Assembly: GCF_003334405.1 (NCBI RefSeq)
Contig: NZ_QOWM01000004.1
Reading direction: 5' to 3' (one strand)
From: Escherichia coli
GTDB lineage: Bacteria; Pseudomonadota; Gammaproteobacteria; Enterobacterales; Enterobacteriaceae
Length of the DNA stretch: 64,000 bases
Of this stretch, positions 9,505 to 11,787 are shown one piece after another (within the stretch, counting starts at the first letter, position 1; each line of letters starts with the position of its first letter). Position numbers and translations under genes: made by a program. The notes under the pieces were generated by a model that ran no database searches, was not told the DNA's origin, and worked only from the letters and a program-made list of their open reading frames with translations.

Positions 9505-11787
9505 TTACATAGATTGAGTGAAGGTACGAGTAATAACGTCCTGCTGCTGTTCTTTAGTCAGCGAGTTGAAACGTACTGCGTAGCCAGATACACGGATGGT
9601 CAGCTGCGGATATTTTTCCGGGTTTTCCATCGCGTCGAGCAGCATTTCACGGTTCATCACGTTAACGTTCAGGTGCTGACCACCTTCGATGGATGCTTCG
9701 TGGTGGAAGTAACCATCCATCAGACCAGCCAGGTTGGTCTTACGAACTTCGTCGTCTTTACCCAGTGCGTTCGGAACGATAGAGAAGGTGTAGGAGATAC
9801 CATCTTTAGCGTAAGCAAACGGCAGTTTAGCAACGGAAGTCAGAGAGGCTACTGCACCTTTCTGGTCACGACCGTGCATCGGGTTAGCACCCGGTCCGAA
9901 CGGCGCGCCAGCACGACGACCGTCTGGGGTGTTACCCGTTTTCTTACCATACACAACGTTAGAAGTGATGGTCAGAACAGACTGAGTCGGGATAGCGTCA
10001 CGGTAGGTGTGCAGTTTCTGAATTTTCTTCATGAAACGTTCTACCAGGTCAACAGCCAGGTCATCTACACGCGGATCATTGTTACCAAACTGCGGGTATT
10101 CGCCTTCGATTTCGAAGTCGATAGCCAGACCGTCTTCGTCACGAATCGGTTTAACTTTCGCATATTTGATTGCAGACAGGGAGTCAGCAGCAACGGACAG
10201 ACCAGCGATACCACACGCCATGGTGCGGATAACGTCACGGTCGTGCAGCGCCATCAGAGAGGCTTCGTAGCTGTACTTGTCGTGCATGTAGTGGATGATG
10301 TTCAGTGCAGTGATGTACTGTTTAGCCAGCCAGTCCATGAAGTGATCCATGCGCTCCATCACTTCATCATAGTTCAGGACATCGCCTTTGATCGGTTCAG
10401 ACTTCGGACCAACCTGCATTTTCAGTTTTTCGTCAACGCCGCCGTTGATTGCGTACAGCATGGTTTTCGCCAGGTTTGCACGCGCACCGAAGAACTGCAT
10501 TTGTTTACCAACGATCATCGGGCTTACGCAGCAAGCAATAGCGTAGTCATCGTTGTTGAAGTCCGGACGCATCAGGTCATCGTTCTCATACTGCAGAGAA
10601 GAGGTGTCGATGGACACTTTAGCGGCGAATTTCTTGAAGTTCAGCGGCAGTTTTTCAGACCACAGAATGGTCATGTTCGGTTCCGGAGACGGACCCATGG
10701 TGTACAGGGTGTTCAGGAAACGGAAGCTGTTTTTGGTAACCAGGGTACGACCGTCGAGGCCCATACCACCGATAGATTCGGTTGCCCAGATCGGGTCGCC
10801 AGAGAACAGTTCATCGTATTCCGGAGTACGCAGGAAGCGAACCATACGCAGTTTCATGACCAGGTGGTCAACCATTTCCTGCGCTTCTTGTTCGGTGATC
10901 TTGCCAGCTTTCAGGTCACGTTCGATGTACACATCCAGGAAGGTGGAGGTACGACCGAAGGACATTGCAGCACCGTTCTGAGACTTAACAGCAGCCAGGT
11001 AGCCGAAGTAAGTCCACTGGATAGCTTCCTGAGCGTTGGTAGCCGGACCAGAGATGTCGTAGCCGTATTTCGCAGCCATTTCTTTCATCTGACCCAGAGC
11101 GCGGTGCTGTTCAGCGATTTCTTCGCGCAGACGGATAGTCTGTTCCAGGTTTACGCCGTTTTCCAGATCAGCCTGCAGAGAAGTGAACTGTGCCAGTTTG
11201 TCTTTCATCAGGTAGTCGATACCGTACAGCGCAACGCGACGGTAGTCACCGATGATACGGCCACGGCCATATGCATCTGGCAGACCGGTCAGAACACCAG
11301 ATTTACGGCAACGCAGGATGTCCGGAGTGTAAACGTCGAACACGCCCTGGTTGTGAGTTTTACGGTATTCAGTGAAGATTTTTTTGATCATCGGATCCAG
11401 TTCGCGGTTGTACGCTTTGCAGGAACCTTCGATCATTTTGATACCACCGAACGGGATAAGAGCACGTTTCAGCGGAGCTTCAGTCTGCAGACCAACGATT
11501 TTCTCAAGCTGCTTGTTGATGTAGCCAGCGTCGTGAGAGGTGATGGTGGAAGCAACAGCGGTGTCAAAGTCAACTGGCGCGTGAGTGCGGTTTTCCAGTT
11601 TAACGCCTTCCATTACTTTGTCCCACAGGGTGGTGGTCGCTTCAGTAGCGCCAGCCAGGAAGGACTCGTCACCCTCGTACGGAGTGTAGTTTTTCTGAAT
11701 GAAGTCACGGACGTTTACTTCATTCTGCCAGTCACCTTTGGTAAAACCTTCCCAGGCTGTGGCTAACTTTTCATTAAGCTCGGACAT
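9505..11787 (-). CDS. pflB: pyruvate formate-lyase (formate C-acetyltransferase 1)
   Basis: ORF 760 aa, [57 protein letters not shown]...; C-terminal glycyl-radical region RVSGYAV. Confidence 0.97.

Follow-up and report, generated by a model that had tools for sequence, protein, structure and literature searches.

Mir et al. 2012 reported that the codon usage of the approximately 5% most highly expressed genes of Escherichia coli yields long open reading frames (ORFs) in frame -1 (PMC3454372), an effect first described by Merino 1994 (NAR 22:1903) and cited in that paper together with Silke 1997 (Gene 194:143). Here we examine such a frame in a stretch of 64,000 nucleotides of E. coli DNA (contig NZ_QOWM01000004.1 of assembly GCF_003334405.1); the whole stretch is referred to as the window, and coordinates are given on it unless another genome is named. 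In the window, the pflB gene for pyruvate formate-lyase (PFL; formate C-acetyltransferase) occupies 9505..11787 on the minus strand, with 760 codons followed by a TAA, as seen in its ORF, its translation and the RefSeq annotation. Antisense to it, at 9514..11766 on the plus strand, lies an ORF of 750 codons with a TTG start and a TAA stop, which the ORF listing and its register place in frame -1 with respect to pflB. The original prediction, made from the sequence alone, had pointed to this stop-free frame and taken it for a compositional artefact rather than a gene. The frame is indeed there, and the interpretation is supported by its register, by a null model matched for codon bias, by its non-conservation, and by the lack of both start signals and a listed initiation peak. 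We consider it very probable that the frame is no second gene but a shadow ORF, which arises without any function of its own as a side effect of translational selection on pflB.

The likeness to the frame -1 shadow ORFs of PMC3454372 is close. In both cases the antisense frame is in register with a strongly biased sense gene that avoids TTA, CTA and TCA, the other alternative frames are closed, and there is no signal of expression. We see no substantive difference between the two, other than pflB being among the longest of the genes with top bias, hence the conspicuous size of its frame. The pflB frame is, in other words, a textbook frame -1 shadow ORF; the phenomenon has already been described, and the frame is not a functional feature.

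Antisense overlapping genes have also been claimed in bacteria, and those resembling the pflB frame most are ano, laoB, pop and others of E. coli O157:H7 (PMC5960689, PMC5810103, PMC7103648, PMC9927249) and olg1/olg2 of Pseudomonas aeruginosa (PMC8850804), all of which are long ORFs antisense within an annotated gene. Those claims, however, are supported by RNA-seq, ribosome profiling, promoter and terminator assays, and phenotypes, none of which stands behind the pflB shadow ORF, and ano is reported to lie in frame -3, unlike the frame studied here. Were the pflB frame a true gene, no antisense overlapping gene claimed so far in a bacterium would come close to it in length, but the evidence is strongly to the contrary.

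Codon usage of pflB and its mirror frame

The 750 codons counted from the TTG belong to a stop-free stretch of 753 codons when the frame is read from stop to stop (9505..11763, plus strand). An in-frame TAA located just outside pflB (9502..9504, plus strand) forms the 5' boundary of this stretch, and the TAA that ends the shadow ORF (11764..11766, plus strand) is the reverse complement of the sole TTA codon of pflB, which encodes Leu8. The pflB segment itself (2,283 nt) found matches with at least 80% query coverage in 5,426 of 5,426 complete E. coli genomes, with 100% identity in the best E. coli matches, where the RefSeq name is pflB, formate C-acetyltransferase. The RefSeq annotation at the locus consists of pflB only, and leaves the shadow ORF without annotation.

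Because pflB and the shadow frame share their codon boundaries (the coordinates are congruent modulo 3), an antisense TAA, TAG or TGA can arise only from a sense TTA, CTA or TCA, respectively. Among the 98 leucine and serine codons of pflB (62 Leu and 36 Ser) there is one TTA, no CTA and no TCA, and 56 of the 62 leucines are encoded by CTG. The near absence of stop-making codons is due to a general avoidance of rare codons by this gene, whose codon adaptation index (CAI), computed against a reference of ribosomal-protein and elongation-factor genes, is 0.82; ATA, AGA, AGG, CGA, CGG, GGG, CCC, CCT, CAT, TTG and AGT are, in fact, all missing from pflB as well. The effect is specific to one frame, as the remaining two antisense frames of the gene contain 29 and 50 stops. 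The same usage leaves its mark on the shadow product, which is rich in valine (15.1%), phenylalanine (10.8%), threonine (9.2%), arginine (8.1%) and glutamine (7.5%), and contains no methionine, since a gene without CAT has no ATG in its mirror frame. The enrichment in these five residues had been noticed in the original prediction and holds, but the accompanying label of low complexity does not, as the product is neither a repeat nor simple sequence. Its composition is the mirror image of that of PflB under biased codons.

The mechanism that we propose is therefore a simple one. Translational selection would strip rare codons from a gene expressed as highly as pflB, and TTA, CTA and TCA, the sole source of stops in the mirror frame, would disappear with the others; in a gene as long as this one (760 codons), with a single stop-making codon left at Leu8, the mirror frame would thus remain open for 753 codons. 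The open frame itself would be unselected and untranslated, and any tolerated silent change to TTA, CTA or TCA would put an end to it. From the evidence detailed below, we infer that translation is absent under every condition.

Open length under null models and opposite other genes

To judge how surprising the length of the frame is, the amino-acid sequence of PflB was recoded with different codon usages, and antisense stops were counted. The possibility that a long ORF of this kind is a matter of pure chance and needs no explanation finds no support in this comparison, and we give it no weight at all: recoding with the mean usage of the neighbouring genes predicts 17 antisense stops, and not one of 20,000 simulations attained 750 open codons. 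When the usage is taken instead from genes having a CAI of at least 0.75, only 1.29 antisense stops are expected, with a probability of 0.27 of finding none and of 0.63 of finding at most one. Under a null model matched for bias, the frame is thus quantitatively what one would expect. The open frame is surprising against average-gene usage and unsurprising against that of comparably biased genes.

The same frame is open opposite other highly expressed genes. The rpsA gene for ribosomal protein S1 (20228..21901, plus strand; 557 codons, CAI 0.80) faces a stop-free stretch of 552 codons in register with it (20267..21922, minus strand). A shadow ORF of 379 codons plus a stop, counted from the first NTG, lies at 20264..21403 on the minus strand (end coordinates calculated from codon counts), which is the figure that had been reported for this gene before our analysis. 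In tufA and tufB the in-register antisense frame is open over the whole gene (395 codons), and frame -1 is open also opposite rplB, rpsC, rplA, rplL and many other ribosomal-protein genes. Open lengths in frame -1 reach 545 of 557 codons for rpsA, 528 codons for fusA and 605 for adhE, and in the MG1655 genome rpoB (992), rpoC (845) and aceE (804) exceed the 753 codons of pflB, whose shadow is therefore surpassed within E. coli. Genes with a low CAI, in contrast, are closed in this frame, as exemplified by gspD and ycaI, with 97 of 650 and 98 of 754 open codons, respectively. These results bear out the explanation offered at the outset, according to which strong codon bias in a highly expressed sense gene removes the codons that would read as stops in one antisense frame: the effect is frame-specific and general among high-CAI genes. 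Chance is also at odds with the arrangement of long ORFs in the window. When open stretches of 250 codons or more were paired across the two strands, with a required overlap of at least 600 nt, six of six pairs were found in register, against a chance of one in three for each pair.

Besides those opposite pflB and rpsA, four further in-register antisense stretches of 265-333 codons were seen, at 32511..33446 (minus strand), 34581..35435 (minus), 44371..45165 (plus) and 49815..50813 (minus). The ORFs that they oppose lie at 32544..33866 (plus strand), 34539..39011 (plus), 44125..45213 (minus, CAI 0.72) and 48840..51458 (plus), respectively, and we take them to be mukF, mukB, ompF and pepN on the basis of the K-12 map, with names unverified.

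Conservation among species and silent variation in E. coli

Conservation was assessed on a set of 80 orthologous loci from the Enterobacterales, one genome per species, with PflB identities of 89-100%; 76 of these are full-length. Over the 80 loci, the number of in-register antisense stops per ortholog ranges from 1 to 20, with a median of 2, and the frame keeps at least 700 open codons in 27.5% of the orthologs and at least 500 in 49%. Stops interrupt it in Salmonella enterica arizonae, Klebsiella indica, Citrobacter youngae, Enterobacter asburiae and others, with PflB proteins that are 95-96% identical to the E. coli one. The number of stops decreases as codon bias becomes stronger (Spearman correlation with CAI of -0.74, p = 4e-15). 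In the 76 full-length orthologs, stops were found at 85 distinct codon positions, and the frame must therefore have been disrupted many times independently. The TTA at codon 8 of pflB is retained in 56 of these 76, despite an otherwise complete avoidance of TTA, and its retention is probably tied to a need for weak mRNA structure, or to a codon "ramp", near the start of the gene.

A different reading of these patterns is that selection acts to keep the frame open, or that the frame dates back to an ancient use of both complementary strands for coding, as hypothesized by Merino et al. 1994. Open frames in frame -1 are, in fact, widespread, and Mir et al. noted that some long ORFs in alternative frames exceed what their model expects (PMC3454372). 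The same authors, however, credit codon usage for the frame -1 ORFs opposite very highly expressed genes. If the frame were selected, one would expect the stop-making codons to be avoided beyond other rare codons, and we compared the share of TTA, CTA and TCA to that of the other rare leucine and serine codons (TTG, CTT, CTC, TCG and AGT), skipping the first ten codons of each gene. In orthologs with a CAI of at least 0.73 the share of stop-making codons was 0.225 (bootstrap 0.18-0.27), versus 0.226 in the E. coli ribosomal and elongation-factor reference, and in orthologs with a lower CAI it was 0.325, versus 0.330 in average genes. In these pflB orthologs, then, no excess avoidance of stop-making codons was seen relative to the control codons. 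This rare-codon ratio was used because the more customary ratio of nonsynonymous to synonymous substitutions (dN/dS) is powerless on the antisense frame, where nearly all changes that are synonymous in the sense gene are nonsynonymous; the changes silent on both strands (CAA/CAG, TCT/TCG and CCT/CCG) involve codons that pflB scarcely uses. Given also that the frame decays with weaker codon bias and through stops at so many positions, we attach next to no likelihood to selection on the frame or to ancient complementary coding, and a by-product of selection on pflB accounts for the same data.

The frame is not fixed within E. coli either. We compared four E. coli alleles of pflB, with 98.9-99.3% identity. 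In the O104:H4 strain HUSEC2011, codon 100 changes from CTG to CTA, which is silent in PflB but turns the antisense CAG found at 11488..11490 on the plus strand of the window (opposite Leu100) into a TAG, and thus interrupts the shadow ORF. Strain AVS0753 differs at 17 nucleotides, every one of them silent in PflB and every one altering the antisense product. If both strands were coding, synonymous sites of pflB would be expected to show excess conservation. We found, instead, 2.0-2.4 synonymous codon differences per 100 codons of pflB over the four alleles, and the value of 2.4 for HUSEC2011 falls within the range of 0-5.7 seen for neighbouring genes in that strain, including focA (2.8), ycaO (1.2), serC (1.4), aroA (1.9), cmk (3.1) and rpsA (0.4). 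The conservation of synonymous sites, proposed earlier as a check, therefore shows no excess over the neighbouring genes, and lends no support to dual coding.

Expression signals, database look-alikes and the neighbourhood of pflB

The possibility that the frame is a genuine antisense overlapping gene for a protein of 750 amino acids has a few points in its favor, namely its great length, the report of an antisense transcript opposite pflB (PMC3419515), the claims of frame -1 antisense genes found in the literature, and the presence of the frame as a hypothetical protein in a few annotations, such as ESA_02442 of Cronobacter sakazakii (783 aa). The sequence itself, however, speaks against a gene. 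A consensus scan of 8400..12000 on the plus strand returned a single sigma-70-like promoter, at 8430, and none within 8460..12000. Inside pflB, no plus-strand hexamer matches TATAAT at five or more of six positions. Synonymous shuffles of pflB contain, on average, 1.2 such -10-like hexamers, with a probability of 0.25 of having none; the antisense strands of rpsA and pflA are likewise devoid of them, and most of the other genes checked have approximately 2-5 per kb. Their absence is due to codon usage, and strong bias thus appears to strip spurious promoters, along with stops, from the antisense strand. There are 17 possible starts in the shadow frame, 14 GTG and three TTG, with no ATG, beginning with those at 9514, 9673 and 9700, and a Shine-Dalgarno-like motif was found upstream of none of the 17. 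Taken as a coding sequence, the frame would have a CAI of 0.39. Searches of the shadow product against Pfam (E <= 0.001) and NCBIfam gave no match.

Among weaker hits, Pfam matches to TPGS1_C (E = 0.037) and SVA (E = 0.11) were dismissed as noise, as was an Rfam match to a Giardia snoRNA, which reached 20 bits where the gathering score is 100; for the pflB region, Rfam gave no family match above noise.

Evidence of translation was sought in Table S1 of Stringer et al. 2021 (bioRxiv 10.1101/2021.07.02.450978), which lists ribosome footprints enriched for initiation in E. coli BL21, obtained by profiling with retapamulin (Ribo-RET), with scores down to approximately 0.6. The pflB gene of BL21(DE3), at 956,363-958,645 of that genome, differs from the window sequence at one nucleotide and has the same open frame, and the table contains no plus-strand start between 955,158 and 959,707, and thus none antisense to pflB. 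The check by ribosome profiling that had been called for was in this way carried out on one BL21 retapamulin dataset, in which no initiation peak is listed for the antisense frame. The 18 supplementary files of the antisense-gene survey by Zehentner 2020, which covers five E. coli strains, do not contain pflB, b0903 or "formate acetyltransferase", a weak negative given that other locus tags might have been used.

Resemblance to deposited proteins turned out to be of little help to the idea of a gene. A search of 5.8 billion predicted proteins returned 26 clusters related to the shadow product, none of which (0 of 26) has a precomputed Pfam domain, and deposited hypothetical proteins include, in addition to the Cronobacter entry, one from Salmonella Typhi and one from Enterobacter cloacae. 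The lengths of several look-alikes (585, 507, 494 and 421) equal the distances from internal GTG or TTG codons of the frame to its stop. Three look-alike loci were inspected. In one (L090), where pflB is cut by a run of N, the gene caller picked the mirror frame; a second (L091) has a broken pflB alignment like that of the first; and in the third (L093) the caller picked a mirror frame of 764 aa over an intact PFL gene whose product is 60% identical to PflB. All three are mirror images of PFL genes. The "homologs" found in databases reflect the conservation of PFL, and are calls made on the wrong strand or across assembly gaps. Spurious protein entries that originate from wrong-strand gene calls are collected in AntiFam. 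The domainless mirror-image PFL hypothetical proteins of public databases are entries of this type, from which our locus differs in that RefSeq calls no such protein in the window. With the start signals, protein-family matches and initiation peak all missing, the frame broken in most related genera and, by a silent change, in E. coli O104:H4, stops not specifically avoided, pflB missing from the supplements of a large survey, and its apparent homologs explained, a genuine 750-aa gene is in our opinion extremely improbable.

We acknowledge that several observations weigh against regarding the frame as a mere by-product of codon bias. When the broader reference of 30 MG1655 ribosomal-protein, rpoA and elongation-factor genes, whose mean bias is below that of pflB, is used to recode PflB, 3.8 stops are expected, the probability of at most one stop is 0.10, and that of a longest open stretch of at least 750 codons is 0.026, which makes the frame only moderately likely. 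A shuffle of the synonymous codons of pflB itself also gives a probability of 0.03 for at least 750 codons, with a median longest stretch of 553; the nearly full open length is due to the single TTA happening to sit at codon 8. The frame is open in some distant PFL genes too, a patchy distribution in line with codon bias having opened it more than once. Ribosome profiling contributes a single dataset from one strain, the table of which may list only peaks paired to a start codon, and pflB is induced anaerobically, under conditions that this dataset may not cover. Finally, some antisense transcript does exist opposite pflB, according to PMC3419515.

This last point deserves attention, as it would allow some of the frame to be translated, if weakly, from an antisense RNA, either as noisy, pervasive translation or as a young, lineage-limited proto-gene without a conserved function. 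In the study by Raghavan, Sloan & Ochman 2012, pflB is among 17 genes with an antisense RNA start site common to E. coli and Salmonella (PMC3419515, Table 2). Any ribosome that initiated on such a transcript would meet no stop, and there are descriptions of pervasive translation from antisense RNAs in bacteria. The likeness to the cis-antisense RNAs of enteric bacteria, however, goes no further than this shared start site: it is an observation at the RNA level, of modest depth (79 and 214 reads), silent on the translation of the 750-codon frame, and its authors judged most antisense RNAs to be non-adaptive. Other sources gave no position for the pflB antisense start: there is no pflB entry in the Romero 2014 supplement, and the tables of Tjaden 2023 give pflB in operon rows only. 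An entry named "formate C-acetyltransferase" at 5.04 Mb in tables of transcription start sites of enterohemorrhagic E. coli was taken, from its position, to be a paralog and not pflB. Also against low-level translation are the absence of even a weak peak from a Ribo-RET table that extends to such low scores, and the fact that candidate starts are GTG and TTG only, without a Shine-Dalgarno sequence at any of the 17. Overall, we regard low-level translation of part of the frame as very unlikely, and give slightly less chance still to partial translation under conditions not covered by these data, such as anaerobiosis, that would yield a lineage-restricted antisense protein or proto-gene inside pflB, one of the E. 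coli genes with the highest expression. A frame kept open by translational selection on pflB, and not itself used, remains the interpretation that we favor.

The pflB case serves mostly as a warning, relevant to genome annotation as well as to reports of overlapping genes. Opposite a highly expressed gene with biased codons, the mirror frame can remain free of stops over more than 2 kb; it appears "conserved" because the sense protein is conserved, and acquires database "homologs" because gene callers sometimes choose the wrong strand. In frame -1, consequently, neither length nor apparent homology nor surprise under an average-gene null model is evidence for an overlapping gene.

A few additional observations concern the surroundings of pflB. 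The mechanical ORFs of focA (11842..12873, minus strand, 343 aa with a TTG start) and pflA (8573..9340, minus strand, 255 aa) exceed the annotated lengths of 285 and 246 aa, and the extra length is only in-frame extension upstream of the real starts. The promoter scan picked up a promoter-like sequence within the pflB-pflA intergenic region (9341..9504), at 9494..9466 on the minus strand. The pflB transcript is reported to be stabilized by an RNase III cleavage site that lies between this gene and pflA and coincides with the pflA promoter region (PMC5371410). Strain 720632, whose pflB is identical to that of the window, has the gene for an IS421 transposase between dmsC and ycaC (locus L001), as well as P2-like prophage genes upstream of dmsA (L001 12355..13467 and 1..8039 were compared). 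A gapless alignment of the window to this strain gives 8,246 mismatches over 31.8 kb, showing that a simple coordinate offset fails, and an indel such as this insertion sequence element, absent from the window, could account for this failure.

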